A DNA stretch of 34,105 bases, taken from UHGV virus genome UHGV-0177136; one strand, written 5' to 3'. Shown piece after piece: positions 1 to 34,105 of this stretch. Below the pieces are notes generated by a model. The model saw nothing but the letters and a program-made list of their open reading frames with translations, ran no database searches and was not told the DNA's origin. Both the position numbers and the translations under genes were made by a program. This DNA comes from a virus. Positions within the stretch are counted from its first letter, which is position 1. Every line of letters begins with the position of its first letter.

Positions 1-542
1 GAGGGCCACGGAACGGGCACACCAACGGGCAGTGCAGAGCCTTCCCCCAAACCAAGGTTTTTGACAAACAGCGCAGGCTCAGGAATATCTGCGCCGTTCT
101 GGTCTTTAGCCAGCTTTTCCGCCAGCTTGTTCAGTACCGTAGTCGCAAAGTTTGGATCATTACCGAGAGCGTCAGCCAGCTCTTTAAGCGTATCCAGTGT
201 CTCAGGGGCGCTGCCTGCAAGTGCCGCAAGTGCTTTGGCCACAAACTCCGTCGTCGCCAGCTTTTTGCTGTTATCACCATTTGCAGGTGTAGGTGCTGTT
301 GGTGTGCCGGTGAATGTCGGACTGGCTTTCGTCGCGTACTGGGTATGCGGGTCAACTGCCGCGATATGTGCAGCCAGGTCTGTTCCGCTTTTTTCGACCT
401 TCTGTTTGAGGTATGACGTTCGGCTGGCCAGTTGTTTAGCTTGGCGGTTAGAAATTCCGTCAGGTCCGCCCAGAACGGGGTCAGAGACCTCAATCTGGTA
501 GATGCCGCTTTCCCACTGCGGGGTTTCGGGTAGATTTGCCAT
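1..542 (-). CDS. tail fibre protein, N-terminal part only (gene continues beyond window start)
   Basis: ATG at 542..540, 2 nt after the stop of the upstream gene. My manual translation reads MANLPETPQWESGIYQIEVSDPVLGGPDGISNRQAKQLASRTSYLKQKVEKSG... with no stop down to at least position 231; not translated for 1..230. This resembles the conserved N-terminus of enterobacterial phage tail fibres. Not in the ORF track because it is open at the edge. Confidence 0.7.
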   Translation of the reverse strand, partial: MANLPETPQWESGIYQIEVSDPVLGGPDGISNRQAKQLASRTSYLKQKVEKSGTDLAAHIAAVDPHTQYATKASPTFTGTPTAPTPANGDNSKKLATTEFVAKALAALAGSAPETLDTLKELADALGNDPNFATTVLNKLAEKLAKDQNGADIPEPALFVKNLGLGEGSALPVGVPVPWP

Positions 543-544
543 AA

Positions 545-1123
545 TTAACTGCTCCCGTGGTTGTAACTACCGTCATAACGGGTAGTACTGTTGTATCGAA
601 TGGCGACAGACTGATATTCCAGACTTGCCAGATGACAGCGAGCCGGAGCAAAGGCAGCAAGCGTCTGACGTAACAGCGCCGCCTGATCGTTAGTGATGGG
701 TTGTTGAAGGATGACGCGATAGACTGCCCAGGCTTGTGCATCACCATGGACGAAAAGCCCGTTGTACGTGTGTCTGCCGTCATAGCCAATCTGCCCCGTA
801 CCTTCAATCAGATCCACTTCGCCGAAGCCAAAACGGCGGATAATTTCCCGGATTGACCACGGTGTTCCTTTATAGCGGTGTAGCTCGATAGCGGATTTGA
901 TAAGCATGCGGCGTACATCGTCCGATTCCGCCAGTTCCCAGCCATCGCCGAACAGCGAGAACTGCTCGCCAAGCCATGGCAGCGCGGAACTGTCGACAAT
1001 ATCGACGAGACCGACCATCAGTACGCTCAGGTCGATGTTATCCAGCCGTCCGGCCAGTCTTCCCAGCGTTCTGAGACTGATATCACCCTCAAGCGGTGGC
1101 GGGAGTTGTAGCACCTCAGCCAT
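545..1123 (-). CDS. tail/baseplate protein, P2 gpI-like
   Basis: 192-aa ORF between the baseplate J-like gene and the tail fibre gene; assignment by position and size. Confidence 0.6.
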   Translation of the reverse strand: MAEVLQLPPPLEGDISLRTLGRLAGRLDNIDLSVLMVGLVDIVDSSALPWLGEQFSLFGDGWELAESDDVRRMLIKSAIELHRYKGTPWSIREIIRRFGFGEVDLIEGTGQIGYDGRHTYNGLFVHGDAQAWAVYRVILQQPITNDQAALLRQTLAAFAPARCHLASLEYQSVAIRYNSTTRYDGSYNHGSS

Positions 1124-2219
1124 CGGACACCCCGGTCATGTTAAGAGTGATCGCTGTACAGTTTGCCCATTCGTTTTCTGCCACCACCCTCAGTGCCGGT
1201 GTCACCAGTTCGACCTGGTACACCCCGGAAACGGACAACACGCTGATAATCTGGCTGGGAACAATATCGCGCCCCAGCGTGGCGGTACGGGATGCCACCC
1301 AGTTCTGTATGGCGCTGTTAGCGTTGTCCTTTACCAACCTTGCATCCTGATCACGATAGATCGTAATCCTGGCTTCAATGGTGTAATCCACCTGAACAGG
1401 TGTTTTAGCCCGCACGGTATCAGTGAGTGGTCTGACTTTTTCGTCAGAACAGAAACTCTCTACCAGAGTGAGGATACTGCTGTCCGGCAGACCAGTGCTG
1501 AGCAGCGGATACAGCTCGACAGTGCCGGGAGCGGGAGAAAGAACAGCAACGTCGACAATGCCGGGATGCGCCCCCATAGCATGAAAACGGTATGCACCAC
1601 GGCTTCCGGCATTGGTGAATGACTCCGGGGCCAGCCTGATACGCTCCCGGAGCCGGTCATCGTCTTCCTGCTCTGAACCGCCAGAGCTGGCCGTCAGATT
1701 GGTCACCAGCAGGTCAATGTTATCAATCTCATCGAGTAACTGACTGACCTGCGCCGGTTGCCAGCCGTTGCCAGCGGTACCCGGCTCGGTACAGGTGGCC
1801 GTGACATTGACCAGCAGCAATCCGGCCTTCAGCACCACATCTGTATCGGTGGCAAAAATAATACTGTCGGAAGCGCTGACGCGGGTGCCTGCCGGGATCA
1901 GCACATCAATGGCCAGTGCCTCATCCACAGAGAACTGAAGTGTGGTGGTGGCAGGCTGCGCAGCAAGGCGGTATATGCCGACCAGTTCACCGAGGTAATC
2001 AATCATCGGCTCACGGGAAAAAGCGACCAGATTCTGCTTCGCCGCCTCCTGTACTGCCACCCTGACCAGCATTTCGCGATAGGCCCACAGGTCAATCAGC
2101 AGACGTTCAGCCTGTGCCGGGTACAGCGTTTTTCCGGTATCCGCTTCATACTTCGCAATCATTTCTGCCGTGATTTTATCGGCATCGCGTTCAATAAAAT
2201 CGGGTTCTGTCAGCGCCAT
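1116..2219 (-). CDS. baseplate J-like protein
   Basis: 367-aa ORF following the gpW-like gene; order V-W-J-I-fibre is typical of P2/Mu contractile tail baseplates. Confidence 0.75.
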   Translation of the reverse strand: MALTEPDFIERDADKITAEMIAKYEADTGKTLYPAQAERLLIDLWAYREMLVRVAVQEAAKQNLVAFSREPMIDYLGELVGIYRLAAQPATTTLQFSVDEALAIDVLIPAGTRVSASDSIIFATDTDVVLKAGLLLVNVTATCTEPGTAGNGWQPAQVSQLLDEIDNIDLLVTNLTASSGGSEQEDDDRLRERIRLAPESFTNAGSRGAYRFHAMGAHPGIVDVAVLSPAPGTVELYPLLSTGLPDSSILTLVESFCSDEKVRPLTDTVRAKTPVQVDYTIEARITIYRDQDARLVKDNANSAIQNWVASRTATLGRDIVPSQIISVLSVSGVYQVELVTPALRVVAENEWANCTAITLNMTGVSDG

Positions 2220-2557
2220 AGCAGTTCCTGAGTACGGGGTTGTCCGTCTGAACCTTTCCAGCTCACCCGGAGCGTAAGATGTTCGCCGTCGACGGCGGGT
2301 TTAACCGACATAAGCTGGCAGCGGGGTTCCCAGCGCCTGATGGCATCGACGGATTCGCGAACCACATGCGGAATGGCCCGGCCGACAGGCCAGTCGATAT
2401 AAAGGTGCAGATTGCTGCCGAACTCCGGGCGATGCGGGTCGCTGCCGCGGGGAGTCCGCAGGATGATCTGGATGGACTGCCGGATATCATCCAGCCCCCG
2501 GACGATTTCGCCGGGAGCCTGCAGAGCTGGTTGCCAGAATACTGAGGTCGTTTTCAT
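2210..2557 (-). CDS. baseplate protein gpW/gp25-like
   Basis: 115-aa ORF between the spike and J-like genes; size and position typical of the gpW family. Confidence 0.7.
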   Translation of the reverse strand: MKTTSVFWQPALQAPGEIVRGLDDIRQSIQIILRTPRGSDPHRPEFGSNLHLYIDWPVGRAIPHVVRESVDAIRRWEPRCQLMSVKPAVDGEHLTLRVSWKGSDGQPRTQELLWR

Positions 2558-2613
2558 GGAGGCAGTATTGCCCCCGGGAAGTAAGCGCCGATATTAAAGG
2601 CGTTTAAGAAGGT

Positions 2614-3141
2614 TCAATGGGAATGGTGATTAGAGTTCTGACCATCAGCAAATATGTTACCCGTTGCATGGGCGCTTCCGTTGATTTCCAGATCACCATT
2701 GAGTGTCGCGGGGCCGTTGATCGTGGTAACTCCCGTGAGGTCGAGGTTTTTCCCTTTGAGAGAGATATCAGCGGCAACCTCCACCACGATACGCTCAATA
2801 CCTCCTCTGACCGTCAGCGTATGGGTCGCGCGGTTATAACTGAACTCCGCGCCATCAGCGTATTTCGTACCCCGGACGTTTTTATCACTGAACGGCGGTT
2901 TATCGACGTCTGAGTACACCGCGCCCAGAATAACACCATCCTCGCCGTTGGCATCGAGCAGCACCTCAACCTGCTCCCCCACGTCAGGGAGCCAGTAATC
3001 CTTGTTATCCTGGGTATTGCGCTGTAGCACGTTAAGCCAGTTTGTGCGCAGATTATCGCATTCAGGCAGACGAACGCGGGCCTGAACCCTGTCGGCATCA
3101 ACGGCACTGACCGTACCGATCTGACGGGTGACACCAGTCAT
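2614..3141 (-). CDS. baseplate spike protein, gpV-like
   Basis: 175-aa ORF with N-terminal OB-like region and Gly/Asn-rich C-terminus, downstream of the gpD-like gene. Confidence 0.75.
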   Translation of the reverse strand: MTGVTRQIGTVSAVDADRVQARVRLPECDNLRTNWLNVLQRNTQDNKDYWLPDVGEQVEVLLDANGEDGVILGAVYSDVDKPPFSDKNVRGTKYADGAEFSYNRATHTLTVRGGIERIVVEVAADISLKGKNLDLTGVTTINGPATLNGDLEINGSAHATGNIFADGQNSNHHSH

Positions 3142-4292
3142 TTTTTCTTCTCCTTAATCACCGTCGATGTACTGCCATCCGGGTGATAAACCGTGAGTTT
3201 CTGAGTTTTTTGTTTTTTCCCTCTTGTGACTGGCCCCCGTGCCACTTCCAGCTCTGTGGTGTAGCCGCTGTTACGCTCAAACGCATGGCGGGCAGTGATT
3301 ATCAGCCATGGACCGGATAACTGTCCAAAGCCCACCAGTTCAATTTTGTTGCCTGCTGTCAGTTGAGGCGTTCCCGTCAGCGTCAGGGAGCCGTTCTGCT
3401 GGTATTCGTTATGTCTGGCCAGTGCTGAATCCGCTTTAATCCGGGCGCTGTCCGGGTCGCTGACGCGGCTGTTAACTTTAAGTGAGTCAGCGCTGGTAAC
3501 CTTACCGCCTTTGAGCTTTTTGTCGCTTTCACGGGTACCACCATCAGCTTCGTAGACGATCAGTTTTTTACTGCTGCTTTTCTGGTGTTTTACCTTTGCA
3601 GATTTATAGACCCGGTTGATGGTGTCACGCAGGGAAAAGCGGGCCACACCCTGCGGTTTTAACTGCCTGACCGGCTCCTGACTGCGCAGTGTGGCCAGAT
3701 GAGAAAAAATCAACTGGTCACTGACCACTTTCACTGCATAACCATACTCGCTGGCCAGCCGGCGCAGAAAACCCACGTCGGTTTCAGCATACTGGGTCAC
3801 CCGGTCGATTTTGATGGACTCAATGCTGCCCACCAGTTTCAGTCGGTGCTTTCTGGCAATCCGCCCCGCAACAGCTGCCAGCGTGGTGTTCTCAAAACCA
3901 CGGCTGGATTTAGTCCGCAGAGCACTGTTAACCGAGGTGGCCACCCCACGGATAGCGACAACGGACGCGGGCGAACTCACTTCGATCTCGTCTATTGAGA
4001 ATGTACCGCAGGACAGCAGTTTCTCGCCCTGATAACCCATTTTCAGCGTCAGCGTGTCACCCTTGCCCGGATACCACTTATCCAGCCAGCGACCATCGGT
4101 GTCATCCAGCTCCACCTCAATGGTATCGGACTCATTTTTGATGTTATCGCTCCAGACCACACGGGTGACATAAGGCGCGATATCAGAGGTGATGTTTTTC
4201 TGCAGATACCACAGAGTGAATACCGGCGTCAGCACATCGCTGACGCCGGTTAACGCTGATGTGGCTTGCGCAGTACTGTTTATCTCAGCCAT
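3138..4292 (-). CDS. baseplate hub protein, late control gene D (gpD)-like
   Basis: 384-aa ORF following the tail protein X-like gene; position and size consistent with gpD family. Confidence 0.7.
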   Translation of the reverse strand: MAEINSTAQATSALTGVSDVLTPVFTLWYLQKNITSDIAPYVTRVVWSDNIKNESDTIEVELDDTDGRWLDKWYPGKGDTLTLKMGYQGEKLLSCGTFSIDEIEVSSPASVVAIRGVATSVNSALRTKSSRGFENTTLAAVAGRIARKHRLKLVGSIESIKIDRVTQYAETDVGFLRRLASEYGYAVKVVSDQLIFSHLATLRSQEPVRQLKPQGVARFSLRDTINRVYKSAKVKHQKSSSKKLIVYEADGGTRESDKKLKGGKVTSADSLKVNSRVSDPDSARIKADSALARHNEYQQNGSLTLTGTPQLTAGNKIELVGFGQLSGPWLIITARHAFERNSGYTTELEVARGPVTRGKKQKTQKLTVYHPDGSTSTVIKEKKK

Positions 4293-4495
4293 GGGGCAAT
4301 ATCCTCTTCTGTACGGGCATCTTCAGCCTCAATAACCGGGATCAGTAACAACAACCCGGAGGGCAGCACCGGCGTAATGGCCACGTGCGGATTGGCTGCA
4401 ATAATCCGGGGATAGCCCAGCGGGTCACCGTAGTACTGCCATGCCAGCGAATCCCAGCGCTCTCCGTCACGGGTAATATGTTCAAGAAACATCAC
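4280..4495 (-). CDS. tail protein X-like (LysM-like small tail protein)
   Basis: 71-aa ORF (MMFLEHITRDGERWDSLAWQYYGDP...) resembling P2 gpX; overlaps neighbours by a few nt. Confidence 0.6.
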   Translation of the reverse strand: MMFLEHITRDGERWDSLAWQYYGDPLGYPRIIAANPHVAITPVLPSGLLLLIPVIEAEDARTEEDIAPWLR

Positions 4496-5376
4496 ACACT
4501 CCTCGTCAGTATTCTGGCGGCCATTGCACTTAATCCCGGAGACATGCGGTTGAATGCTGTGCCGGCGGCGTTAAGCTGCCCGGAAACGGTATCCAGAGCA
4601 CCTGCAATATTTCTTTTGTCCACACCACTCAGCGCCGACTGCGCCTGCTGTACATACGTGGCTGCCTCACTGGCTGTTCTGGCCAGACTGATGGCATCGG
4701 GCATGGATTCAGAGAGTGCATTAAACGCCGGAACACTTTTCCCCAGAGCTCCGGATATATTACCCAGTCCGCTCATCAGTCCCGGCACACGGGTCAGCGC
4801 GACAACGGGGTTACCCTTCATTTTCTGCGCCACCCGAACGGCACTGATAGTGGTCTGGAGTACAGACTGCGCCTGTTTCGCATAGTTGACGCCGTTACGG
4901 ACGAACTGCGCCACCCCGGAAGGCGATGGAACAGCACCCGATACAGCTCCGGCACCGGGAACCTGCCTGCGTATTGCCGGCGGTTGCAGAGGATTTTTCG
5001 GGTCACCGGTGTATTCCCGGAGAGACACGGTGGCACTGACAACCAGCACGTTACCGGTGCTGTCTGTCTGCTCGCTGGTTGCGGTCACATCGGTAATCAC
5101 GAACCAGCCGCGATAGTCACCGTTGCCGAAGACCAGCGCCAGTGCCTGATGGGCCTTCATGGCTGTTCGCACTCTCGCCAGCTCCACGTCGGGCACACAA
5201 TAATGCTGATGGAAGACCAGGCTTATCTGGATTTCGTCCAGCCTGTCGCCGACAAACTGCAGGCCGGGTTTACCCTCGATGCGGGCATGCTCCGCATAAT
5301 CGACGCCGAACGTGGCCTCGAAGCCGTCCCAGTAGGTAATCAGTTCAAACTCAATATCACCCAGTACGGCAAACAT
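4492..5376 (-). CDS. tail protein, gpU / DNA-circularisation-protein-like
   Basis: 294-aa ORF immediately downstream of the tape measure gene; N-terminal region resembles P2 gpU-type tail proteins; C-terminal Ala/Ser/Gly-rich extension. Confidence 0.55.
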   Translation of the reverse strand: MFAVLGDIEFELITYWDGFEATFGVDYAEHARIEGKPGLQFVGDRLDEIQISLVFHQHYCVPDVELARVRTAMKAHQALALVFGNGDYRGWFVITDVTATSEQTDSTGNVLVVSATVSLREYTGDPKNPLQPPAIRRQVPGAGAVSGAVPSPSGVAQFVRNGVNYAKQAQSVLQTTISAVRVAQKMKGNPVVALTRVPGLMSGLGNISGALGKSVPAFNALSESMPDAISLARTASEAATYVQQAQSALSGVDKRNIAGALDTVSGQLNAAGTAFNRMSPGLSAMAARILTRSV

Positions 5377-7841
5377 CAGCTGTACTCCTTACGTTGTTTC
5401 TGAGCCAGCAGACGCTCCAGCATTTTTTCCAGCTCATGCAGGCTCATATTCAGGGCACCAGTCAGCCCGGCAGGCGCTGCGGTTTCCTTACCATTGAGGA
5501 AAAACTGAGGATTAAAGCTGACCTGGATACCGCCAGACGCTCCACCGCCAGTTGCAGTTGCGCCACGGCCTGAATATCCGGCAGCCATGATTTCCGGCGA
5601 CGGGATACGGGGAACATCCGGTGTCATTTCAGCGGCCAGGCGCTGCCCGGCCAGTGCAGCAAGCGGAGTGGTCCGTTGCAGGCCAATGGCGGCACCCTGC
5701 GCGATATTGTCACCAAAGCCCATAAACACGCGACTCGGTGAATGAATGCCCAGCTTTTCGCTGAACCAGTCACTGATGCTGTCACCCATTCCGGTTACGC
5801 TGGTTTTGAGTGACGCCCATTTGTTTCTGATGCCATTTATCAACCCGTCAATAAGATGACCACCGAAGTCGGTGAATTTCGCCGGCAGATCAACGCCGAG
5901 ATATTTCAGCGCAGCCGCAAAGGCTTTATAAAGCAGACCAGCCGGAGACCAGTTAACCAGCAGTTTACCAATTCCCACGATGCCGCCGTTAAAGGCTTCC
6001 TGAATGTCAGCCCAGCGCTGTTTAAACCAGCTACTGACTGCGCCCCAGTTGCGGTAGATAAGGTAAGCTGCTGCCGCGACGGCGGTGATAACGAGACCGA
6101 TGGGATTCATCAGCAGCGCCCGGCCAATCCAGAGAACGGCACGCCCGGCGTTCATAATTCCGCGAACCAGCCCCCCTGAGAGCACACCACCCAGTGTTCT
6201 GGCTCCTCTGGCGACAGCACCAAAGCCTGTCACCAGCCAGCGGAGTTTACCGCCTTCCCCCAGTGCGAGCGTCAGACGAAGCCAGTTGGCCCGAAGTAAA
6301 ACAGCATTTTTCCAGACGCTTACAAAGGGGGAAAGAAGGAGATTCAGCCCAAGCTTGAGACCGATAGTGGCCATCCTGAAAGCGAGTAATGCGCCCACAA
6401 CCTTTATGGTGCTGCTGACGAGCTGCGGATTTGCCGCTATCCATTTGCCAACACTGTCCATTAAAGGAATAAATGTTTCACCCAACTGGAGCAAAGCCGG
6501 ACGCAAGGATTGCCCGATGCTGATAGCAGAATCATTAAAGCCGATCTGCATTCTGCGCCAGCGACCTTCAAGCGTATCATTCTGCTTTGCAGCATCCTTA
6601 TCCAGGGTAGACATTGCTGCCGGAGCATTCATTTCCTGCTTACTGGAAAGGTATTTATCCCAGCCCTGTCGCATTGACAGTAAATGGTTGACAGTCTGAA
6701 TATCGGTAAAGACCTCAGCCAGACCAAATGACTCCATGAGTTTCTGCTGACCTTCCTGATCGCCTCTTGCTCCTGCAGCTTTCCATTGCTGCAAGAACGC
6801 TTTGCCTTTACTGTCGATAAAACGGTTGGCAATCATCAGTGAAGCTTCGTACTGCGAAAAACCCTGAGCGACGTAATTCTGCATTGACCCCTGGTAATCC
6901 ACCCCGGCTTTAGCATATTTCTGGATGGTATCTCCGCGGCCCATTGCTGCCAGCCAGTTGGACATATTGGTGACCGCTTCCTCTGCAGAGCCACTACCTT
7001 TACCGACCTCCAGACTGGCAACAATCTGGGTAATCGCATCTTTTCCATAAATACCACGAGCAGCGAAGGCTTTAGCCATACCGGGTAATGCTTTTGCCAT
7101 ATCCTTCAGCTCAAATGACCCAAGTTTGGCTCCTGTTGCCGCAATACCAAACGCCTGTTCAAGTTCTTTCGCATCAGTGATTCTGAGTGCATCGCTGAAG
7201 GCATAAGTCATTTTGGCAAGGTCGGTCATATCGGCTTTGGTTGCTGTAGCGGTCTTTCCAAGCATCTCTGCAAACGTTGCTGCCCGTTCGGGGGCCATAC
7301 CATCAGCAACTAATTGTCCGACTCCCCCTAACAGAGACTCCTGCAGTTGGTTAACCTTCAGCGAGGCCTGTTTGATAGCCTGGCCAATTGCACGTTCCTG
7401 TTTTGCATCCAGGTCTCCTGTGACACTGATATCCCGCAACTGTGATTCAAACGAGGCATATTGTTTAACCGAGGCCATGACCGGTGCGCCCAGCGTTCTG
7501 CCAATAGCATAGGTTTCTGCACCCTGACCATAGAGCGCCAGGCGGTTAGCCTTCAACGCATCACCGATGGCTGATACTGCTGACAGACGGCGCTGCTGAC
7601 GTTCAATTTGCTCCATGGTGCGGCTTACCCGCAGCAGCTCGCTGTTGAGATGCTGCATCCGGGAAGAACCCAGTTGACCATAACGTTCTGTTGCACGGGT
7701 TAAAGCGTTCTGACGTTCCTGCAGGCGGCGTGAGGTATCGCTCAGGGAATCAAGCGCACGGCGGGTACCGCTCATTGCAGAACGGAATGTGCTGCCAACC
7801 ATCCCGCCGATAACAACGCCGACTGAAAACTGTCCCGACAT
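5376..7841 (-). CDS. tail tape measure protein
   Basis: 821-aa ORF, largest in the tail module, downstream of the chaperone pair; Ala/Gly-rich with hydrophobic segments typical of tape measure proteins. Confidence 0.8.
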   Translation of the reverse strand: MSGQFSVGVVIGGMVGSTFRSAMSGTRRALDSLSDTSRRLQERQNALTRATERYGQLGSSRMQHLNSELLRVSRTMEQIERQQRRLSAVSAIGDALKANRLALYGQGAETYAIGRTLGAPVMASVKQYASFESQLRDISVTGDLDAKQERAIGQAIKQASLKVNQLQESLLGGVGQLVADGMAPERAATFAEMLGKTATATKADMTDLAKMTYAFSDALRITDAKELEQAFGIAATGAKLGSFELKDMAKALPGMAKAFAARGIYGKDAITQIVASLEVGKGSGSAEEAVTNMSNWLAAMGRGDTIQKYAKAGVDYQGSMQNYVAQGFSQYEASLMIANRFIDSKGKAFLQQWKAAGARGDQEGQQKLMESFGLAEVFTDIQTVNHLLSMRQGWDKYLSSKQEMNAPAAMSTLDKDAAKQNDTLEGRWRRMQIGFNDSAISIGQSLRPALLQLGETFIPLMDSVGKWIAANPQLVSSTIKVVGALLAFRMATIGLKLGLNLLLSPFVSVWKNAVLLRANWLRLTLALGEGGKLRWLVTGFGAVARGARTLGGVLSGGLVRGIMNAGRAVLWIGRALLMNPIGLVITAVAAAAYLIYRNWGAVSSWFKQRWADIQEAFNGGIVGIGKLLVNWSPAGLLYKAFAAALKYLGVDLPAKFTDFGGHLIDGLINGIRNKWASLKTSVTGMGDSISDWFSEKLGIHSPSRVFMGFGDNIAQGAAIGLQRTTPLAALAGQRLAAEMTPDVPRIPSPEIMAAGYSGRGATATGGGASGGIQVSFNPQFFLNGKETAAPAGLTGALNMSLHELEKMLERLLAQKQRKEYS

Positions 7842-7916
7842 AGTGGTTAACCTCCGGGGAAGGTGAAAAGACGTGAGGGGATAACGCAGAACAGCCGCTA
7901 CTGGCGGCTGTCTGTA

Positions 7917-8174
7917 CTATGATTTGTCGCCGAACTCGCTTTTGATTTGCACTTCAGCCTGCTCCAGCCACATCTCCAGATCGTCAGTATCGAGGGCATC
8001 AATCTCCCCCGGTTGAAACCTGAACCATCTCGCCAGCAGGCCCTGCGCCTGCATCAGTGTTTTTGTCGCTCTTGCCCAGCCCAGTGATTTTCTGAAATCG
8101 TTTCTGCAGCTCCATATAGTCGGCAAGATCCATGTTATCGAGGTCTTCCGGGAGGATACCGGTGCTACGGGCAA
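7917..8174 (-). other. overlapping ORF in the +1 frame relative to the chaperone ORF, candidate frameshift extension (GT-like)
   Basis: 85-codon ORF overlapping the 3' half of 7999..8340 and extending 82 bp beyond its stop, at the conserved position of programmed-frameshift tail chaperones. Confidence 0.45.
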
Positions 8175-25409: not shown

Positions 25410-25425
25410 TTGAACATATCTCAAT

Positions 25426-25453: not shown

Positions 25454-25491
25454 AGACCCAATAGAGTACATCATAACCTAACAAGAACACG

Positions 25492-26027: not shown

Positions 26028-26037
26028 GGAGTAATCA

Positions 26038-26949
26038 ATGGGACGCACCAAATCACCGGTTAGCACTGAACTGAACGTCGAGGTACCGCTGTCGGATGAT
26101 CTCAATGTCAGTCTAAACGCCATGACACAGCATCGCATGGAAATCATGCAACAGTTCGGCGATGGTCTGCCCTATGAGCGCGATCGTGTTGTCCATGAGG
26201 CATGCTTTTATATGGCACAGAGCGCTGAGGCCATGCTGGAGGCAGGTAAGCGGCTGATAATCCTTAAGGAAAATGAACCACACGGGGAGTTTATAAAGAT
26301 TCTTGAAAGTGAGTTGGGGCTGGCATACCGGACATCTGTGAGAATGATGCAAGCATCGACAAAATACTTATCCCCGGCGCTGAAACCAAATGTGCCAACG
26401 TTGGCACATTTGGGAAAAGCCAAACTTTTCGAATTAATGACAGAAGACGACGAAGAGCTTGCCGAACTGGCCGACGGCGGCACAGTTGCCGGCCTGACGC
26501 TTGACGACGTTGATCGCATGTCAGTACGCGAACTTCGCCAGGCCCTGCGCGAAGCGCGCGAAACCAACGCAGCACAACAGCGCGTACTCGCCGATAAAAA
26601 TGAAAAAATTGATTCTCTCTCTACCAGACTGGAAAAGAAATCCCGTATTCAGCCGCCTGAGCCTGATGAGGAGGTTAAGAAGCTGCGGGCGGAAGTGACA
26701 GCATTAGCGGTTGAGGCGGAATCTGCTATCGCCGTTCGACTGTCCAGCGCTTTTGAGACACTGTGCGCATATTGTGCTGAAAACATGATTGATACCCCCA
26801 GAGACTTCATGGCAGGCCTGGTCTGTCAACTGGAAAGCACAGCGCGTAGCCTGCGCTCCACATTTGACCTGCCGGACGAGCCAACAGGCAATGCAGCGCC
26901 TTCATGGCTGACTGAGCCGACGCCACAGATTAACGGGCTGGAGGCATAA
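26038..26949 (+). CDS. hypothetical early protein
   Basis: 303-aa ORF with RBS AAGGAG; acidic and coiled-coil segments; directly upstream of the transposase. Confidence 0.5.
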   Translation: MGRTKSPVSTELNVEVPLSDDLNVSLNAMTQHRMEIMQQFGDGLPYERDRVVHEACFYMAQSAEAMLEAGKRLIILKENEPHGEFIKILESELGLAYRTSVRMMQASTKYLSPALKPNVPTLAHLGKAKLFELMTEDDEELAELADGGTVAGLTLDDVDRMSVRELRQALREARETNAAQQRVLADKNEKIDSLSTRLEKKSRIQPPEPDEEVKKLRAEVTALAVEAESAIAVRLSSAFETLCAYCAENMIDTPRDFMAGLVCQLESTARSLRSTFDLPDEPTGNAAPSWLTEPTPQINGLEA

Positions 26950-26952
26950 CCA

Positions 26953-28722
26953 ATGAATGCTGCCCTGACTGAACGACTGGTTTATGTCGCCCGCGCGGCA
27001 CGTGACGCGGGGCATGGTAAACGCGGTGCAATATACGACGCTGCCTGTGCTGAACTTGGCATGTCCCGCGCCACTCTGCTGCGCAGGCTGAAGGAGGTCT
27101 CTGTGACTGATAAACGCAAAAAACGCGCCGATGCCGGGCGCAGCGCCCTGACCCGCGACGAAGCCGCGCTGATATCTGCCACACTGCGTGAGGCCACCCG
27201 CAAGAACGGTAAGCGTCTCTATTCCATCGCGGATGCAGTGGAAACCCTGCGGGCTAACGGCTTTATCTCCGCAGGCAGAACAGATGAAACCACCGGTGAG
27301 TTTTTCCCGTTGTCCGAAGATGCCATCAGCCGTGCCCTGCGTAACTATGGCCTGCACCCGGAACAACTGGATGCCCCTGCACCACATACTGAAGTGGCCA
27401 GTCTGCATCCCAATCATGTCTGGCAGATTGATGCCTCGCTCTGCACGCTTTACTACCTGAGCAATGGACATAAAGGGCTGCAGGTGATGGACAGCGCGAA
27501 GTTCTACAAGAACAAGCCCGCTAACCTTGCCCGTATCGCCAGTGACCGCGTGTGGAGTTACGAGATTACCGACCATGCCAGCGGCTGGATTTACGTTGAG
27601 TATGTGACGGGGGCGGAATCCGGTGAGAACCTGTGTTCTGTGCTTATCAACGCCATGCAGGAGCGTGGCGGCGCAGACGTGTTGCACGGTGTGCCGAAAA
27701 TACTCTATCTCGACCCCGGCTCGGCAAACACCGCGGGTATGACGAAAAACATGTGTCGCTCACTGGGCATTGACCTGATAGCGCACAAGCCGCATAACGC
27801 CCGCGCCACCGGACAGGTGGAAAAGGCGCGTGACATTATCGAACGCAAGCTGGAGCCGGGTCTGAAGTTCCGGCCGGTTCACAGTCTGGAAGAACTCAAC
27901 GCGCTGGCCGCGAAATGGCGCAGCCACTTTAACGCCACGGCTGTTCACAGCCGCCACGGTAAAACCCGCACGGATATCTGGCTGAAGATTACTGCTGAGC
28001 AGCTGAAAAAAGCGCCTTCCGTTGAGGTATGTCGTGAACTGGCTGTGGCGGCACCAGAACTCCGCAAAGTCACGCCAAAACTTCGTGTCTCGTTCCGGGG
28101 CACTGAATTTGACGTATCAACGGTACCGGGCGTACTGGTCGGTGAAAAACTGATGATTACCCGTAACCCGTGGCGCAGCGATGTGGCACAGGTGGTTCTG
28201 ACCGGTGAGGACGGCCACGAGACGTTCTTCCTGGTCGAAGAGGTCAGAAAGAACGAGTTTGGCTTTGCTGAAGGCGCGGCGGTATTTGGCGAAAGTTACA
28301 AAGCCCTGCCGGAAACCCCGGCGCAGATGGCGGCAAAAGAAACCGAAGAGCTGGTCACCGGTACAGACAACGCCGCAGATGCAGCTGCCGCACGCAAGGC
28401 GAAGGCGCTGCCGTTCGGCGGGCGGCTTGACCCGTATAAACATATTGATGACGCCACACTTCCGGCCTACATGCCGAAGCGCGGTCAGGCCTCTGACGTA
28501 CGCGGGCCGCGCACTGAACAACGTCCCATGACTCATGTGGAGGCCGCGAAAGCCCTGCGCGATAAGTTCAGCGCCGACGGCCTTACCTGGACGCCGGAAC
28601 ATTACCGCCAGTTAACGGCACAGTACCCGGACGGCGTACCGGAAGCTGCACTGGATGAAGTCATGGCCACGCTGACCACGCCGGCACGCAGCAGTGTTAT
28701 CAGCATTGTTAACGGCAACTGA
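26953..28722 (+). CDS. DDE transposase, Mu A-like
   Basis: 589 aa; N-terminal HTH-like region then integrase-core-like segment with candidate catalytic residues (WQIDAS, YLDPGS, downstream E); followed by the ATPase partner. Confidence 0.8.
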   Translation: MNAALTERLVYVARAARDAGHGKRGAIYDAACAELGMSRATLLRRLKEVSVTDKRKKRADAGRSALTRDEAALISATLREATRKNGKRLYSIADAVETLRANGFISAGRTDETTGEFFPLSEDAISRALRNYGLHPEQLDAPAPHTEVASLHPNHVWQIDASLCTLYYLSNGHKGLQVMDSAKFYKNKPANLARIASDRVWSYEITDHASGWIYVEYVTGAESGENLCSVLINAMQERGGADVLHGVPKILYLDPGSANTAGMTKNMCRSLGIDLIAHKPHNARATGQVEKARDIIERKLEPGLKFRPVHSLEELNALAAKWRSHFNATAVHSRHGKTRTDIWLKITAEQLKKAPSVEVCRELAVAAPELRKVTPKLRVSFRGTEFDVSTVPGVLVGEKLMITRNPWRSDVAQVVLTGEDGHETFFLVEEVRKNEFGFAEGAAVFGESYKALPETPAQMAAKETEELVTGTDNAADAAAARKAKALPFGGRLDPYKHIDDATLPAYMPKRGQASDVRGPRTEQRPMTHVEAAKALRDKFSADGLTWTPEHYRQLTAQYPDGVPEAALDEVMATLTTPARSSVISIVNGN

Positions 28723-28732
28723 GGAGGAAAAC

Positions 28733-29899
28733 ATGCTGGTACTGAAGCAGCAACTGAAAGAGGCCCGTATCTCACAGGCGGTGGTGGCGAGAGCTGTCGA
28801 TGTTTCTGAGGCCACGCTGGCCCAGATTGTGAATCATAACGCGTGGCCCCGCACCCGCCCCGGAGAAGTGCGCCGGCGTCTTGCGTCCTGGCTGGAAAGT
28901 CAGGGGATTGATACAACGAAGAGTTTTGATGCTGTACAGGGCGCGGCCACGCCCCGTACAGCGGGTACCACAGATAAAACGAGCCTCAGTGAGGAAGAGA
29001 ATATGTTACTCAAAAAACAGGTGTTATTTCCAGCAACCAAAAAAGCGTTTGGTCTTTTCCGTGACCCGTTCGCCGACGAAGCCATGCAGGGTTCTGATGA
29101 TGTGTTCACCACCCCGGACATCCGCTATGTGCGTGAGGCGCTGTACCAGACAGCCCGTCATGGTGGATTTATGGCCGTCATCGGTGAGTCCGGTGCGGGC
29201 AAATCCACGCTGCGCCGCGACCTGACTGAACGTATCAACCGCGAGAATGCGCCGGTAATTGTTATCGAGCCATACGTCATCGCTATGGAAGACAACGATG
29301 TGAAAGGGAAAACTCTGAAGGCAGCAGCGATTGCCGAAGCCATTATCAGTACCATCGCACCACTGGAAAGCATCAGACGCAGTCAGGACGCCCGCTTTCG
29401 CCAGTTGCATCGCGTCCTGAAAGACAGCAGCCAGGCGGGGTTCAGCCACGTTCTGGTGATTGAGGAGGCTCACAGTCTGCCCATTCCGACACTGAAACAC
29501 CTCAAACGCTTTTTTGAGCTGGAGTCCGGTTTCAAAAAGCTGCTGTCCATCATGCTGATTGGCCAGCCGGAACTGGCGACAAAACTGTCTGAACGCAACA
29601 TGGAAGTCCGCGAAGTCGTTCAGCGCTGTGAGGTGGTCGAACTTCTGCCTCTGGACAATCACCTTGAAGAATTTCTGACGTTCAAACTGCAACGGGCCGG
29701 TAAACAACTGACGGACATTATGGACGCCAGCGCAGTGGATGCCATACGTACCCGCCTGAGCAATCCGGGAAGTCATCGTAAAAATATGGTCAGCCTGCTG
29801 TATCCGCTGGCCGTCAGTAACCTGGTAATAGCCGCCATGAATCTGGCCGCTGAAATCGGGGTTCCACAGGTCAACGCTGACGTTGTCAAAGGGGTTTAA
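28733..29899 (+). CDS. transposition ATPase, MuB/TniB-like AAA+
   Basis: Start ATG 28733 after GAGGAGG (track ORF starts at an upstream GTG); N-terminal HTH-like segment; Walker A GESGAGKST; Walker B-like HVLVIEEAH. Confidence 0.8.
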   Translation: MLVLKQQLKEARISQAVVARAVDVSEATLAQIVNHNAWPRTRPGEVRRRLASWLESQGIDTTKSFDAVQGAATPRTAGTTDKTSLSEEENMLLKKQVLFPATKKAFGLFRDPFADEAMQGSDDVFTTPDIRYVREALYQTARHGGFMAVIGESGAGKSTLRRDLTERINRENAPVIVIEPYVIAMEDNDVKGKTLKAAAIAEAIISTIAPLESIRRSQDARFRQLHRVLKDSSQAGFSHVLVIEEAHSLPIPTLKHLKRFFELESGFKKLLSIMLIGQPELATKLSERNMEVREVVQRCEVVELLPLDNHLEEFLTFKLQRAGKQLTDIMDASAVDAIRTRLSNPGSHRKNMVSLLYPLAVSNLVIAAMNLAAEIGVPQVNADVVKGV

Positions 29900-29901
29900 T
29901 A

Positions 29902-30171
29902 ATGAAATCCACCACAGGTATCAACCAGCAAATCAGTAAAGTGCAGTCAGCCATTATGGCGCTTAAGGCGACGAACACGGATGTACAAAGCATCACCATC
30001 AGGGGTAACAAACCTGTCATCCGTGTTTCCAGGAGTGCGCATTGCATGCGCATGCTTGAGCAGGGAAAGGCCTGTTATCTGTATACCGGACATGACCACA
30101 GGGGATATTTCCGTCAGGGCGTTTTCGAACTGCACGGCTGTCGCGTCGTGTGGCCGGAATCTTTGTGGTAA
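29902..30171 (+). CDS. hypothetical protein
   Basis: 89-aa ORF tightly following the ATPase gene. Confidence 0.4.
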   Translation: MKSTTGINQQISKVQSAIMALKATNTDVQSITIRGNKPVIRVSRSAHCMRMLEQGKACYLYTGHDHRGYFRQGVFELHGCRVVWPESLW

Positions 30172-30198
30172 TCAGCACAACTGGAGAAATCATAAAAA

Positions 30199-30729
30199 AT
30201 GGCAAAAAGTACAAAAGGTGCAAAACGTATCAAGGCCGCAGCAGCACTCTGGGTGCCGGGGACACGTGAAGAGGTCATTGAGGGCATCAGACTGCTCGGT
30301 GACGCACACCGTGAACTGGTCAGGGCTGAAACAGAAATGAATGACGCCATTGGCGATATCACCGCACGTTATGCCCCGCTCACCGAGAGCCTGAAAAAAC
30401 GCATGGCCGAACTGCAGTCCGGTATTCAGACATGGTGTGAGGCACACCGTGATGAACTGACCGGCAACGGGAAGGTGAAGTTTGCTAACCTCACCACCGG
30501 CGAGGTGCAGTGGTGAAACCGCCCGCCGTCAGTCAGCATTCGCGGAGCGGATAATGTTATTGAACTACTGAGACGTCTGGGGCTTGAGTGCTTTATTCGT
30601 GTAAAAGAGGAAATAAATAAAGACGCTATCCTGAATGAAAAAGAGGCCGTGAAAAATATTCCCGGTATTTCCATTAAAAGCGACATTGAGGATTTTTCAA
30701 TAATTCCTTTTGAGCAGGATGTGCAGTAA
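30199..30729 (+). pseudogene. gam: Mu Gam-like host-nuclease inhibitor interrupted by an in-frame TGA at 30514..30516
   Basis: Codons 1-105 (MAKSTKGAKRIKAAAALWVPGTREEVIEGIRLLGD...) match my recollection of Mu Gam. The same frame stays open after the TGA for 70 more codons (NRPPSVSIRGADNVIELLRRLGLECFIRVKEEINKDAILNEKEAVKNIPGISIKSDIEDFSIIPFEQDVQ) that match the Gam C-terminus; the TGA sits where Mu has Arg. Confidence 0.7.
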
Positions 30730-30826
30730 ACACACCACGTTAATTATTTAATAAAAACATTTTCTTTTTTATTCCGGCGTCAGCGCCGTGGGCTTCTGCA
30801 CGCCGGAAACAGAGGAGAATTAAATT

Positions 30827-31021
30827 ATGATATTTAAATGTATTCAGTGCGAGAGGGATATAACAGCCCTGCGTTTTCACAGCGCCATCGCCGTGGTGTC
30901 CGGTAAGTACCATGTACCTGCAGTACGTGTCACCCTGGTCTGTCCGTACTGCAGCCAGCATTTTTCGGCGGACGTGCCCGTCATGGAATTCTCCCGCCCT
31001 GACAGGGAGGACGCGCAATGA
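30827..31021 (+). CDS. small zinc-ribbon-like protein
   Basis: 64 aa with CxxC (CIQC) and CxxC (CPYC) pairs; RBS GAGGAG upstream. Confidence 0.5.
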   Translation: MIFKCIQCERDITALRFHSAIAVVSGKYHVPAVRVTLVCPYCSQHFSADVPVMEFSRPDREDAQ

Positions 31022-31290
31022 TTACCCCACAGGAAGCACGACAGCGCACCCGAACTCTTGTTGAACACTATGTCAACGAGTGTGAATGCCGCGACCTCAC
31101 CGATGTGAAGCACGTCCTGACGGCGCTAATCAGCATGGCCACGCAGGCCATTGTGGCAACCAACGGAAAGGAGGCTGCCCTGCAGGTACTGATGAACACA
31201 CTCACCCACACGGCAGAGCACGAGGTGCCGTACCGGGTGGAAACCACTGCAGAAGGCGGCCTGAACATCACCGTCGACCGGAAACACTGA
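31018..31290 (+). CDS. hypothetical protein
   Basis: 90-aa ORF; ATGA overlap with the upstream stop. Confidence 0.45.
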   Translation: MITPQEARQRTRTLVEHYVNECECRDLTDVKHVLTALISMATQAIVATNGKEAALQVLMNTLTHTAEHEVPYRVETTAEGGLNITVDRKH

Positions 31291-31299
31291 GGGCGCGGC

Positions 31300-31602
31300 A
31301 TGACACGGAACACCGAACTCACCCGCACCGCCCTCTACCGTCTGGCCCTGCAGCGTTTCGGGCCGGACGCACAGGCCCTGAAACTGACAGAAGAGGCCGC
31401 TGAACTGGCGGCCAGTGCCGCCCGCAACCTGAACGGACAGGGCAGCGAAAGTGACCTCGCGGCAGAGCTGGCAGACGTGGAAATCATGACAGAGCAGCTG
31501 CGCCTTCAGGGAATGGACCGGCTGATTGACTTCCACAAACAGAAAAAACTGGAACGCCTTGCCGCACGGCTGGGCGTCACATACACCGGAGAAATCATAT
31601 GA
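31300..31602 (+). CDS. small all-alpha protein with MazG-like EExxE signature (putative nucleotide pyrophosphohydrolase domain)
   Basis: 100 aa; TEEAAELAAS and ELADVEIM acidic motifs reminiscent of MazG/HisE-type NTP pyrophosphatases; from memory only. Confidence 0.4.
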   Translation: MTRNTELTRTALYRLALQRFGPDAQALKLTEEAAELAASAARNLNGQGSESDLAAELADVEIMTEQLRLQGMDRLIDFHKQKKLERLAARLGVTYTGEII

Positions 31603-31982
31603 ACCGCACCGAACAGACGCCACAACTGACGCCGGAAGATGCTGCACAGCGTATTCGGGTACTGGAAGACGAAAACGAATACCTGCGCAAGAGATTTGAA
31701 GAGGTGGACCTGTACTTCGGGCGCAATCTGGTCGTCATGAAAGCTGCAGTGATTGAGTGGCGGGCCACCGGTGATGCCTGGAACGGCATGGCGTGGATTT
31801 ACAACACCCTGTGTGGGCCGGGCGAACTGCCGCCGCAAGAGGAAAAAGAGGCACAGGAATACTTCAACAGGGAAACTGAAGTTATCGACAGAAAACTGGC
31901 TGCCCTGTACCACTGGTTCAGGAAATATCACAGGACACACGCCGCACCTGACCAGACCACCACAGGAGGTACCAGTGACTGA
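31599..31982 (+). CDS. hypothetical protein
   Basis: 127-aa ORF; ATGA overlap with the upstream gene. Confidence 0.45.
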   Translation: MNRTEQTPQLTPEDAAQRIRVLEDENEYLRKRFEEVDLYFGRNLVVMKAAVIEWRATGDAWNGMAWIYNTLCGPGELPPQEEKEAQEYFNRETEVIDRKLAALYHWFRKYHRTHAAPDQTTTGGTSD

Positions 31983-32190
31983 CACCATTATGGAAATTGT
32001 GGTATGGGCTTTCCTGCTTACTGGTATAGCCGTGTGCATCTGCGCCGGATTCGCCCTGGTTGCCCTGCTGACCCACGTGGTGACGCAGTGGTTATGGGAA
32101 AAGCTTAAAGCAGCATACAGCCTGAAAGAGCTGTCCGACGCTGTTCGGGCATGGAAACGGCAGAAAAATACCGGAGATACTGAACAATGA
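31975..32190 (+). CDS. small membrane protein (single TM helix)
   Basis: GTG 31975 with AGGAGG 7 nt upstream (ATG alternative 31990); VVWAFLLTGIAVCICAGFALVALL hydrophobic helix; lies inside a longer track ORF that starts upstream. Confidence 0.45.
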   Translation: MTDTIMEIVVWAFLLTGIAVCICAGFALVALLTHVVTQWLWEKLKAAYSLKELSDAVRAWKRQKNTGDTEQ

Positions 32191-32870
32191 CAGACCAGAA
32201 TAAACACATTGAGAAACTGAAAAAGTTGCTGGCGCTGGCCGCATCCGGCAACCCGCACGAGGCCGCTCTGGCACTGCGCCGCGCCCGTAAACTGATGGAT
32301 GTTCACGGCATCACACATTCCGACATTGCCATGAGTGATATTGATGAAACCATCAGTCATTACTGGCCGACAGGCAGTCTCCGTCCACCGCGCTACATGC
32401 TGGGCCTGATGAACATCATCCGCGAGGCATTTGGTGTTAACTCCATAATTCACCCCGGCACATATCCGGGTGTGGGGTTCTACGGCAACCGGGAACGGGC
32501 CGCACTGGCTGCGTACACCTGGGAAGTGCTGGCCCGCCAGCTGAAAAAGGCGCGTCAGCAGTATATCAGCGCACAGAACAAAAGAATAAAAACTGCCACC
32601 CGTACCAGCCGTGGTGACCAGTTTGCTGAAGGCTGGGTGCTGGTCGTTATCAGTGAAATACAGTCCTTCGCCCTGACCGATGACGAACGTGAACTGATGC
32701 AGCAGTGGCTGGAACATAAATACCCGCAGACGCAAACCACCAGGGCGCGTAAACCGGGAAGAAGCCGCAATGGCGACGCCTCGCGCTATGCGGGGTTTCG
32801 TGAAGGGCAGAACGTCAGACTGCACCGCCCGGTCAGTGGGCAGGAACAACAGAAACTGGAGGCCAGATGA
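32187..32870 (+). CDS. DUF2786-like phage protein
   Basis: 227 aa; N-terminus KLKKLLALAASGNPHEAALALRRARKLM typical of a widespread phage/plasmid family; ATGA overlap upstream. Confidence 0.55.
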   Translation: MTDQNKHIEKLKKLLALAASGNPHEAALALRRARKLMDVHGITHSDIAMSDIDETISHYWPTGSLRPPRYMLGLMNIIREAFGVNSIIHPGTYPGVGFYGNRERAALAAYTWEVLARQLKKARQQYISAQNKRIKTATRTSRGDQFAEGWVLVVISEIQSFALTDDERELMQQWLEHKYPQTQTTRARKPGRSRNGDASRYAGFREGQNVRLHRPVSGQEQQKLEAR

Positions 32871-33097
32871 TTACGCTATCAGGTAACAGCCGGAAATTAA
32901 AAGCCTGCCGAATATCTGCCAGATACCTTTTTGCCCGCGCCTTTTTTAAGAACGTCAGGCCGGGGATCACAATTGGTGTTATTGCCGGACGCGAACAGGT
33001 TGAAAAATACATGTCAGGTGCATGGTGGAATAACGACCCTGTCATTGCTGCCCGTAATATTCATATCAGTTGGGGGGATATTCAGAATGACTGCTGA
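32867..33097 (+). CDS. hypothetical protein
   Basis: 76-aa ORF; ATGA overlap with upstream gene. Confidence 0.35.
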   Translation: MITLSGNSRKLKACRISARYLFARAFFKNVRPGITIGVIAGREQVEKYMSGAWWNNDPVIAARNIHISWGDIQNDC

Positions 33098-33302
33098 ATC
33101 TGTTGTATGTGCCCTGTTCTGGTATTGTTTTGTCGGTTGGTGTACTGCTGAACTGCACCGCCGTTCAGGGTTTTATTCACGTTACAGTGGTGCCGGCTAC
33201 TGGATTAGCTGGTCGGTGATGTTCCTGTGCTGGCCTGTGGCGCTTCCTTTATATGTCGATTATATCGGTGGCGCAGGTAAAAGGAGCAACGATGATGACT
33301 AA
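33087..33302 (+). CDS. small membrane protein (two hydrophobic segments)
   Basis: ATG 33087 inside a longer track ORF; 71 aa with VVCALFWYCFVGWC and WISWSVMFLCWPVALPLYV. Confidence 0.4.
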   Translation: MTAESVVCALFWYCFVGWCTAELHRRSGFYSRYSGAGYWISWSVMFLCWPVALPLYVDYIGGAGKRSNDDD

Positions 33303-33744
33303 ACAACGTCTTATCCAGCTCATTCATATTGCCCGTAATGAACTGGGTATGGATGAAGACACCTACCGCCAGATGTTACAGGGGCTGACCGGTAAAGCCT
33401 CAACCAAAGGAATGGATACCACACAACTAAATTGCGTGCTGGAATCCATGAAAAGGAAAGGCTTTCGCGTTAAGCCTGCCGGAAAAGCCAGCTCCGGTTT
33501 ACAGCTGGATAACCATCCGCAGTCCAGGAAAATCCGTGCTCTATGGCTTGAAATGGCTGCTGCCGGCATTGTTCGTGACCGTTCAGAAAATGCATTAGCG
33601 CGGTGGATCAAGCGGGAAACGGGCATCAGCGCCCTGCGCTGGCTCAATACTGAACAGGCAAGCAGTGTTATTGAGAAACTGAAGAAGTGGCAGCACAGAG
33701 CTGCGGGAGTAAAACATGAGCGACCTGAATCAGTTTCGAAGTAA
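33292..33744 (+). CDS. gemA: GemA-like protein (Mu gp16 family)
   Basis: Start ATG 33292 after AAAGGAG; MMTKQRLIQLIHIARNELGMDEDTYRQMLQ... resembles Mu GemA-family proteins; directly precedes the Mor-like gene as in Mu. Confidence 0.65.
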   Translation: MMTKQRLIQLIHIARNELGMDEDTYRQMLQGLTGKASTKGMDTTQLNCVLESMKRKGFRVKPAGKASSGLQLDNHPQSRKIRALWLEMAAAGIVRDRSENALARWIKRETGISALRWLNTEQASSVIEKLKKWQHRAAGVKHERPESVSK

Positions 33745-34105
33745 AGGGCCGGAACTCCTGGTGGAACTGGCACAGCATACCTCTGAGACCGTTCGCGAGA
33801 TTATTGATATTGAGCCCGCAATTGCCGACCAGATTGGTCAGGCCGTCGCGAACCGCATGATGCAGGTCTGGGGCGGGCAAAACGTTTATTTCCCGATGGG
33901 CATGGTATGGAAGGTCAGTCAGCGCGACCGGGAAATCTTCAGGGAGTTTAACGGACGTAACCACCATGAACTGGCCCGCAAATTTGGTGTTTCGCTTCAG
34001 TGGGTCTACAGCGTGGTTAAGCGGGTAAGAAAAGAAGAACTGGATCGGATGCAGGGCAAGCTATTTGCTGATGAACCCGATGTAGATACGGAGAAAAAAG
34101 AGTAA
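33716..34105 (+). CDS. mor: Mor-like middle transcription activator
   Basis: 129 aa; C-terminal region (REFNGRNHHELARKFGVSLQWVYSVVKRVRK) resembles the Mu Mor/C family; complete, stop at 34103..34105. Confidence 0.75.
   Translation: MSDLNQFRSKGPELLVELAQHTSETVREIIDIEPAIADQIGQAVANRMMQVWGGQNVYFPMGMVWKVSQRDREIFREFNGRNHHELARKFGVSLQWVYSVVKRVRKEELDRMQGKLFADEPDVDTEKKE

Follow-up and report, generated by a model that had tools for sequence, protein, structure and literature searches.

The 34,105-nt stretch of viral DNA considered here (UHGV virus genome UHGV-0177136; hereafter the window) is, with high confidence, an internal slice of a transposable myovirus prophage of about 37 kb that resides in Escherichia coli and belongs to the lineage of phage BcepMu. 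This judgment takes in the account of gene layout and regulation given below. A map of the open reading frames (ORFs) shows 29 minus-strand genes in an unbroken run that extends from beyond the left edge (<1) to position 21708 and leads from the tail fiber to the holin. At least 15 consecutive plus-strand genes occupy positions 25492–34105, from two small helix-turn-helix (HTH) proteins to the late activator Mor. Between the two blocks lie a DNA adenine methylase gene, dam (21956–22726, plus strand), a two-gene cargo (22716–24931, minus strand), and an HTH repressor gene (25002–25409, minus strand). The map thus bears out an earlier note, made from the letters of the window, which had described a leftward late cluster and a rightward early cluster separated by a cargo and immunity zone.

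The composition of the window follows the same division. Guanine-plus-cytosine (GC) content is 41%–47% in the central zone versus 54.4% over the entire window, and the cumulative GC skew descends across 1–21 kb and climbs across 26–34 kb, which fits expectation because the two blocks are transcribed in opposite directions. The earlier impression of an enteric-looking GC level was roughly right, with the window between Mu (52.1%) and BcepMu (62.9%).

This architecture is the published and defining plan of a known phage group. In the genome of Burkholderia phage BcepMu (AY539836), the type of this group, genes 1–16, with Mor, GemA, the ExeA-like protein, and the transposase, read leftward, and genes 17 (repressor) to 52 (tail fiber) read rightward. 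The features that mark the “BcepMu-like viruses” are this two-cluster layout, a transposase of the Tn552/IS1604 type, terminal CA dinucleotides, and a P2-like tail (Lavigne et al. 2009). When 48 proteins of the window were compared by tblastn with the BcepMu and Mu genomes, 34 of the 48 genes matched BcepMu in strictly colinear order and, once the window was reverse-complemented, in the same relative orientation. Mu was matched by only nine: the large terminase subunit (TerL), the portal, F, G, Gam, GemA, Mor, a weak baseplate match, and 25 tail-fiber residues. The resemblance to BcepMu-type phages that the earlier note had pointed to is therefore upheld by gene content and order, by the BcepMu map, and by the published description of the group (Lavigne et al. 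2009).

The matches run through every late module. TerL is 62.2% identical to its BcepMu counterpart, and the head morphogenesis and packaging genes at 14463–19359 match BcepMu gp27–gp31 at 44%–67% and Mu G, F, H, and E at 27%–49%. The head genes at 11817–14248 share 45%–53% identity with gp32–gp35 and include a match to the Pfam family Phage_cap_E. Sheath and tube are 77.4% and 67.6% identical to gp39 and gp40, respectively. The tail and baseplate genes at 545–8340 are colinear with gp41–gp51 at 28%–62% identity, and their RefSeq names in a prophage copy designated L003 agree. Matches to gp21–gp26, together with RefSeq names, identify the lysis cassette.

In the early block, the first genes share 35%–41% identity with BcepMu gp12 and gp10. 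The only Pfam domain of the transposase is rve; besides its resemblance to BcepMu, the protein is about 57% identical to the A subunit of Pseudomonas phage B3. It has no similarity to MuA (E = 1.4 in a direct BLASTP comparison, and no tblastn match in Mu). When PDB sequences were searched with the transposase and its partner ATPase, all matches were marginal and irrelevant, and none was a MuA structure. The neighboring ExeA-like ATPase is 59.4% identical to BcepMu gp08, and the corresponding protein of B3 (ORF11), likewise ExeA-like, carries the annotation B subunit. Mor, the single Mor/C-family gene in the whole element, is 54.2% identical to BcepMu gp01 and 31% identical to Mu Mor. The accessory early genes at 30827–33302 have no BcepMu or Mu counterparts by tblastn.

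The earlier note had stated that only the repressor gene of Mu reads leftward, and the Mu record (AF083977; genus Muvirus) confirms this for gene c, alternative frames of the G segment aside. The window resembles Mu in being derived from a transposable temperate myovirus of the same size, and the full prophage carries a Gin homolog. One could accordingly imagine a true Mu relative, of the Muvirus lineage, in which the left 9–12 kb had recently been inverted. Such an origin would account for the identities to Mu of Mor (31%), GemA (35%), Gam (55%), TerL (49%), and F (48%), and for a Gin-like invertase that is 75% identical to Mu Gin. Mu, however, uses MuA and MuB, has Mu-type tail genes, and relies on Mor and C as separate proteins in a cascade of three tiers. 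The transposase of the window is unlike MuA, its ATPase is ExeA-like rather than MuB-like, its tail genes are of the P2 type, and 34 genes match BcepMu against the nine that match Mu. Target duplications of Mu are 5 bp long, and those of this element are 6 bp. A recently inverted Mu relative is therefore very improbable. With no similarity to MuA, a divergent gene order, and 6-bp duplications, the window falls outside the genus Muvirus.

The divergent layout is also found beyond the myoviruses. Pseudomonas phage B3 (AF232233; Beetrevirus) and phages of the JBD25/JD18 type share the plan; in B3, ORFs 1–17 (Mor to the A and B transposition genes) read leftward, and ORF18 (repressor), lysis, head, and tail genes read rightward. 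B3 differs in having a siphovirus tail module and Dam and Com genes inside the late region. The divergent layout is the ancestral plan of the lineage defined by the early module, which comprises BcepMu-type myoviruses and B3-type siphoviruses, and does not reflect a rearrangement specific to the window.

Complete copies of the element in other genomes reveal how it is bounded. Position 1 of the window corresponds to position 7273 of copy L003. The right edge coincides with the Mor stop codon (34105), and the true prophage end lies 162 nt further on (Mor stop at 41393 and prophage end at 41555 of copy L003). Positions 1–25000 have a match in 817 of 5426 complete E. coli genomes, with at least 80% present in 269 of them, and closed E. 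coli chromosomes contain, without a break and at 99% identity, the stretch from lysis through cargo and repressor to early genes. Three full copies were recovered with their flanks, of 37,111 bp in yccM, 36,797 bp in cbrA, and 36,871 bp in yidK. All three begin with TGATGCGCCGCGCGATAAA and end with TCTAATCA (TG...CA ends), and they are flanked by exact 6-bp target duplications (GGTCGT, AGAACG, and CCTTGC, respectively). Three further copies share the terminus but adjoin different host DNA, in emrA, beside chbG, and inside a tail gene of another prophage, which brings the number of different host positions to six. A seventh genome, KE50, has a different neighborhood near a flagellin gene; its right terminus was not located with the terminal 10-mer, and this site is left out of the count.

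At either end, two G[AC]GATAWWT repeats lie about 11 and 33 nt inside the element. The right end of BcepMu is nearly identical to the tail-side end, and the BcepMu left end resembles the Mor-side end, so that polarity matches as well. TG...CA ends are also reported for the BcepMu group in the literature. Transposition by the element is well supported by these sequence features. The insertions in cbrA (L006) and yidK (L007) are separated by only about 10 kb of the yid region and have opposite orientations; this proximity could be due to chance (rough p about 0.05–0.1) or to a regional target preference.

The complete copies also bear on two further explanations of the gene order. The divergent arrangement might have been produced by misjoining or circular permutation of a contig from a phage colinear with Mu, a concern that the earlier note itself had raised. 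Permuted assemblies do exist in this group, as the record of phage PhiKM shows, and the left edge of the window sits on a repeat of an invertible segment, a typical point for a contig to break. Yet the same order, with junctions continuous at 99% identity, occurs in many closed chromosomes, in three independent host genes the whole element lies between one pair of ends flanked by 6-bp duplications, and the independently sequenced BcepMu and B3 genomes have the same order. An assembly artefact is excluded on these grounds, and we consider the residual chance of one negligible.

Alternatively, the two blocks might be adjacent but unrelated elements, namely the remnant of a P2-like prophage and a Tn552-like transposon or island. 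The P2-like tail, the transposon-type transposase, and the low-GC zone that divides the blocks would all be compatible with such a composite. Against it, one pair of ends always encloses both blocks, whatever the chromosomal context, and the late block includes head and terminase genes of the Mu type, which are needed for packaging transposed copies. Furthermore, Mor of the early block matches conserved elements located before the late operons, and phage particles with such a genome have been deposited (PhiKM and KP12_2). We regard a pair of unrelated elements as highly unlikely and interpret the window as part of a single transposable prophage of the BcepMu lineage.

Close relatives of this prophage are already represented in GenBank. 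Escherichia phage PhiKM (PQ738613; 95% DNA identity), Klebsiella phage KP12 clone KP12_2 (OM835952; 87%), and Escherichia phage Phi06_2974 B (KM389306; 87%) match most of the window and agree with it in gene content and order, and transposases 98.5% and 93.7% identical to that of the window are found among them. The suggestion that the window samples a less characterized enteric phage therefore stands only in part. The enteric affiliation is sound, given 99% identity to E. coli prophages, but near-identical phages have been deposited and the prophage is common. The PhiKM record is partial and circularly permuted, starting at the small terminase subunit (TerS) and joining the tail fiber to the Mor end; its order cannot be that of the virion or the prophage. 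Clone KP12_2 of KP12 is filed under Vequintavirinae though its genome is of the BcepMu type, and it is probably an induced prophage that was sequenced along with the named phage.

Enteric relatives had been noticed much earlier: in 2004, SalMu of Salmonella and PhotoMu of Photorhabdus were reported alongside BcepMu. Papers on Salmonella and E. coli genomes, among them PHASTER-type reports, routinely mention “BcepMu” prophages. One genome report for uropathogenic E. coli (UPEC) describes a “BcepMu” region of 36.8 kb and 54.9% GC, which matches the element in both size and GC content.

How closely the prophage is allied with BcepMu itself depends on which features are compared. The two agree in the divergent layout, the rve transposase with an ExeA-like ATPase, the head of the Mu type and tail of the P2 type, the TG...CA ends, whose terminal repeats are homologous, the presence of just one Mor/C regulator, and a late element that is described below. 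BcepMu differs in its higher GC content and in carrying an acyltransferase gene (gp53) and genes for SSB and HU. The E. coli lineage, unlike BcepMu, has Dam, a Mu-type gam gene, a Gin-type invertible segment, and other accessory early genes; BcepMu has been reported to be without a system for tail-fiber inversion (Lavigne et al. 2009).

Some observations weigh against the interpretation offered here. A megablast search with the window recovered no BcepMu DNA match, and protein identities to BcepMu are mostly 40%–70%. Neither prophage end is within the window, and the ends and duplications were seen only in 99%-identical copies from other genomes. The action of Mor and the two-tier cascade proposed below are deduced from conservation and position only, with no secure −10 or −35 sequences. 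Finally, gam of the window carries a nonsense codon at 30514–30516 (CGA to TGA at Arg106) that cuts the protein from 176 to 105 amino acids, and this particular prophage may thus be partly impaired; three relatives, L003, L007, and PhiKM (L001), retain an intact codon.

The ICTV criterion for a genus is usually about 70% or greater genome nucleotide identity with the type species. The low identity to BcepMu suggests, from sequence comparison, a sister genus. PhiKM is filed under Bcepmuvirus in the NCBI taxonomy, but strict membership of that genus is uncertain because of the lack of a megablast match, the gap in GC content, and the gene differences. The place of the prophage in the wider BcepMu-type group is secure.

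The arrangement of genes and intergenic regions suggests how the prophage might be regulated. A repressor gene diverges from the early operon in the position of BcepMu gp17 and B3 ORF18. In the 82 nt that separate the repressor from the first early gene lies a rightward, near-consensus sigma-70 early promoter, TTGACA-16-TACAAT (25426–25453), with 11 of 12 matches to consensus. Three copies of an operator of the ACTCWTTTGGGT type are placed between the promoter hexamers, inverted just downstream, and over the start codon of the repressor. Once repression is lifted, rightward transcription of the early operon would pass through the transposition genes and reach GemA and Mor, near one terminus. 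Mor would then act in trans on two conserved late promoters of the opposite strand. The promoter before the holin would drive lysis, terminase, portal, F, and G as far as an intrinsic terminator, and the promoter before the protease/scaffold gene would drive head and tail genes. The outcome would be a two-tier cascade rather than the three-tier Mor-to-C scheme of Mu.

Candidates for the two late promoters are found in the only sizeable noncoding gaps of the late block, at 21709–21955 and 14249–14462. The element TAA[AC]GC.[GC].TTAAAA occurs on the minus strand at 21761–21775 and 14306–14320, and in both gaps CTGTCTCC follows TTAAAATC at a distance of 23 nt. In the window, PhiKM, KP12, and BcepMu, the strict element has exactly two copies in each genome, both of them on the late strand and in the same two gaps (at L004 11486–11500 and 18813–18827 in BcepMu). 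It is likewise present in E. coli prophages. A looser pattern would be expected 0.125 times per shuffled window. The lone 8-mer TTAAAATC that the late gaps share was rejected as evidence in itself, as two stretches of about 230 nt share about one by chance. Only the composite motif, whose spacing is constant, and the fact that it recurs in other genomes at homologous gaps were accepted.

The BcepMu-type late element is absent from B3 and is therefore not universal to the lineage that shares the early module. B3 instead has a perfect dyad, TTTTCG-N6-CGAAAAGC, that is common to its two equivalent late gaps. The elements of both kinds are probably lineage-specific late promoters responsive to Mor.

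Each late gap also contains a potential leader structure. In both leaders (21709–21745 and 14249–14290), CTGTCTCC can pair with the Shine–Dalgarno region (GGAGACA or GGGACAG), forming hairpins with the sequences CTGTCTCC / GGAGACAG and with z-scores of −3.2 for the holin leader and −2.1 for the protease/scaffold leader. The BcepMu holin leader likewise buries its Shine–Dalgarno sequence (z = −4.2). These putative hairpins may serve in translational control or as mRNA-stability elements.

Between the two late transcription units, gene G is followed by a terminator hairpin of −20 kcal/mol (z = −4.3) and a run of U residues. Its core, TTTATAAAGGCTTTAC, is kept in the BcepMu G–I gap (about L004 18740–18780) without general DNA similarity. 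The G–I gap of Mu contains a predicted terminator, the late promoter P_I, and a strong gyrase site. A more detailed proposal would extend these features to the E. coli/Klebsiella phages, BcepMu, and B3 together. All would have a two-tier cascade in which Mor directly activates just two late promoters, before the holin and before the protease/scaffold gene, through co-evolved, lineage-specific elements (TAAMGCNSNTTAAAA in the BcepMu and E. coli phages and TTTTCG-N6-CGAAAAGC in B3), and leader hairpins that mask the ribosome-binding site would provide a further check on translation. The E. coli lineage would, moreover, be a mosaic whose gam gene and Gin-invertible host-range segment were acquired from Mu-type phages. 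We consider the case for this proposal to be evenly balanced.

The value of these findings is primarily in correct labeling. The prophage is often called “Mu-like” and is near-complete in about 5% of complete E. coli genomes, but it has a transposase of another family, makes duplications of 6 bp and not 5 bp, and has the divergent architecture of BcepMu and B3. Recognition of this architecture also locates the immunity switch, two probable late promoters, and a variable slot for cargo genes beside the repressor. Current understanding of transposable phages is unchanged. The features of the window are collected in Table 1; Rfam and tRNA scans of the window gave no match.

Table 1. Features of the 34,105-nt window, in order of position
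Feature	Position	Strand	Basis
Tail-fiber gene, N-terminal part, running off the left edge	1–542	−	Stop-free frame; 54.5% identity to BcepMu gp52
P2-type tail and baseplate genes: I, J, W, V, D, X, U-like, tape measure, assembly chaperone	545–8340	−	
Tail tube, tail sheath, and head-tail connector genes	8432–11815	−	BcepMu gp39 and gp40 matches
DUF2190 protein, major head protein, protease/scaffold (equivalents of Mu T and I/Z)	11817–14248	−	
Candidate late promoter “P_I”, before protease/scaffold gene	14273–14320	−	Element TAAAGCAGATTAAAAT, then CTGTCTCC
Intrinsic terminator after gene G, between the two late transcription units	14380–14419	−	Terminator scan
Mu-type head morphogenesis and packaging genes: G, F, portal (DUF935), TerL, TerS (DUF3486)	14463–19359	−	
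Lysis cassette and two small genes: holin, SLT-type transglycosylase, Rz-like lipoprotein/spanin, membrane protein	19359–21708	−	
Candidate late promoter “P_lys”, before holin	21728–21775	−	Element TAACGCTGTTTAAAAT, then CTGTCTCC
DNA adenine methylase (Dam), D12 class	21956–22726	+	Pfam MethyltransfD12, 7e-28
401-amino-acid transmembrane (TM) protein, 2 nt after the gene for the nucleoid-associated protein (NAP)	22716–23921	−	Acidic N-domain; three C-terminal TM helices
YejK-like NAP, full-length	23924–24931	−	Pfam NA37, 1e-80; YejK structure 9be2, 7e-30
Immunity repressor, cI/Cro-type HTH	25002–25409	−	Pfam HTH_3, 3e-12; Phage_CI_repr, 1.5e-6
Switch region: early promoter and operators	25401–25470	+	Promoter scan; repeat analysis
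First early genes: 76-amino-acid HTH (Ner/Cro analog), 102-amino-acid winged HTH, DUF3102	25492–26949	+	PHROG; Pfam
DDE transposase, rve type, BcepMu gp09 family	26953–28722	+	68.7% identity to BcepMu gp09
ExeA-like AAA+ ATPase, functional counterpart of MuB	28733–29899	+	AAA_22, 1e-19; phrog_296 “DNA transposition protein”, 4e-92
gam, Mu-type host-nuclease inhibitor	30199–30729	+	55% identity to Mu Gam
Small accessory early genes, including NTP-pyrophosphohydrolase-like and DUF2786	30827–33302	+	ORF list; PHROGs; RefSeq names
GemA homolog	33295–33744	+	45% identity to BcepMu gp02, 35% to Mu GemA
Mor/C-family late activator, distal end of early operon	33716–34105	+	Pfam Mor, 1e-43

Among the genes of the central zone, Dam is annotated in PhiKM and KP12 and has no match in BcepMu or Mu; it is a backbone gene of the E. 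coli/Klebsiella lineage. The two cargo genes have a GC content of 41% and are found in 19 of the 5426 complete E. coli genomes, always beside Dam in this slot of the prophage. In PhiKM and KP12, the slot between Dam and the repressor is occupied by other small genes. The 401-amino-acid protein, a member of phrog_5023, has an N-domain with an isoelectric point of 5.0 and three C-terminal hydrophobic segments. Adjacent NAP and TM genes in this order are also present in Klebsiella phage Kp4865-4 and Sinorhizobium phage phi2LM21, two unrelated phages.

A 2026 preprint describes type II PANGU systems, in which a NAP sensor (Pag2A) is paired with an effector (Pag2B) that has an acidic, DNA-mimicking N-domain and a C-terminal TM domain. 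According to this preprint, the system acts by abortive infection and protects against phages that degrade the host chromosome, such as T4, in a manner dependent on EndoII; the tested example came from UPEC. The cargo pair is a probable anti-phage system of the type II PANGU kind, judging from the match of its architecture to that description. Membership of the 401-amino-acid protein in the Kiwa system was also considered and was dropped in favor of the PANGU architecture, because the PADLOC match to KwaA was weak (8e-5) and the partner protein is not KwaB-like.

The Dam and TM genes of the window are convergent and overlap by 11 nt (22716–22726). In phi2LM21 (L009 1622–3718), the NAP and TM genes are likewise accompanied by a convergent homolog of Dam, at 44% identity. 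From this arrangement, the methylase might be functionally linked to the cargo pair, although Dam is present also in relatives that lack the pair.

At the other end of the window, the tail-fiber gene is 68% identical to Mu S over just 25 amino acids (tblastn). Positions 1–60 of the window constitute a crossover repeat that is present in four copies, two direct and two inverted, in the tail-fiber region of copy L003 (4523–7334), where inverted repeats of 216–268 nt are located in the tail-fiber genes (5156–7334). The recombinase gene that adjoins these repeats in the full prophage encodes the protein with 75% identity to Mu Gin. A predicted multisegment, Gin-type invertible host-range region is thus situated just to the left of the window. 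The coincidence of the window edge with the crossover repeat is exact, which suggests that the contig broke at the invertible segment.

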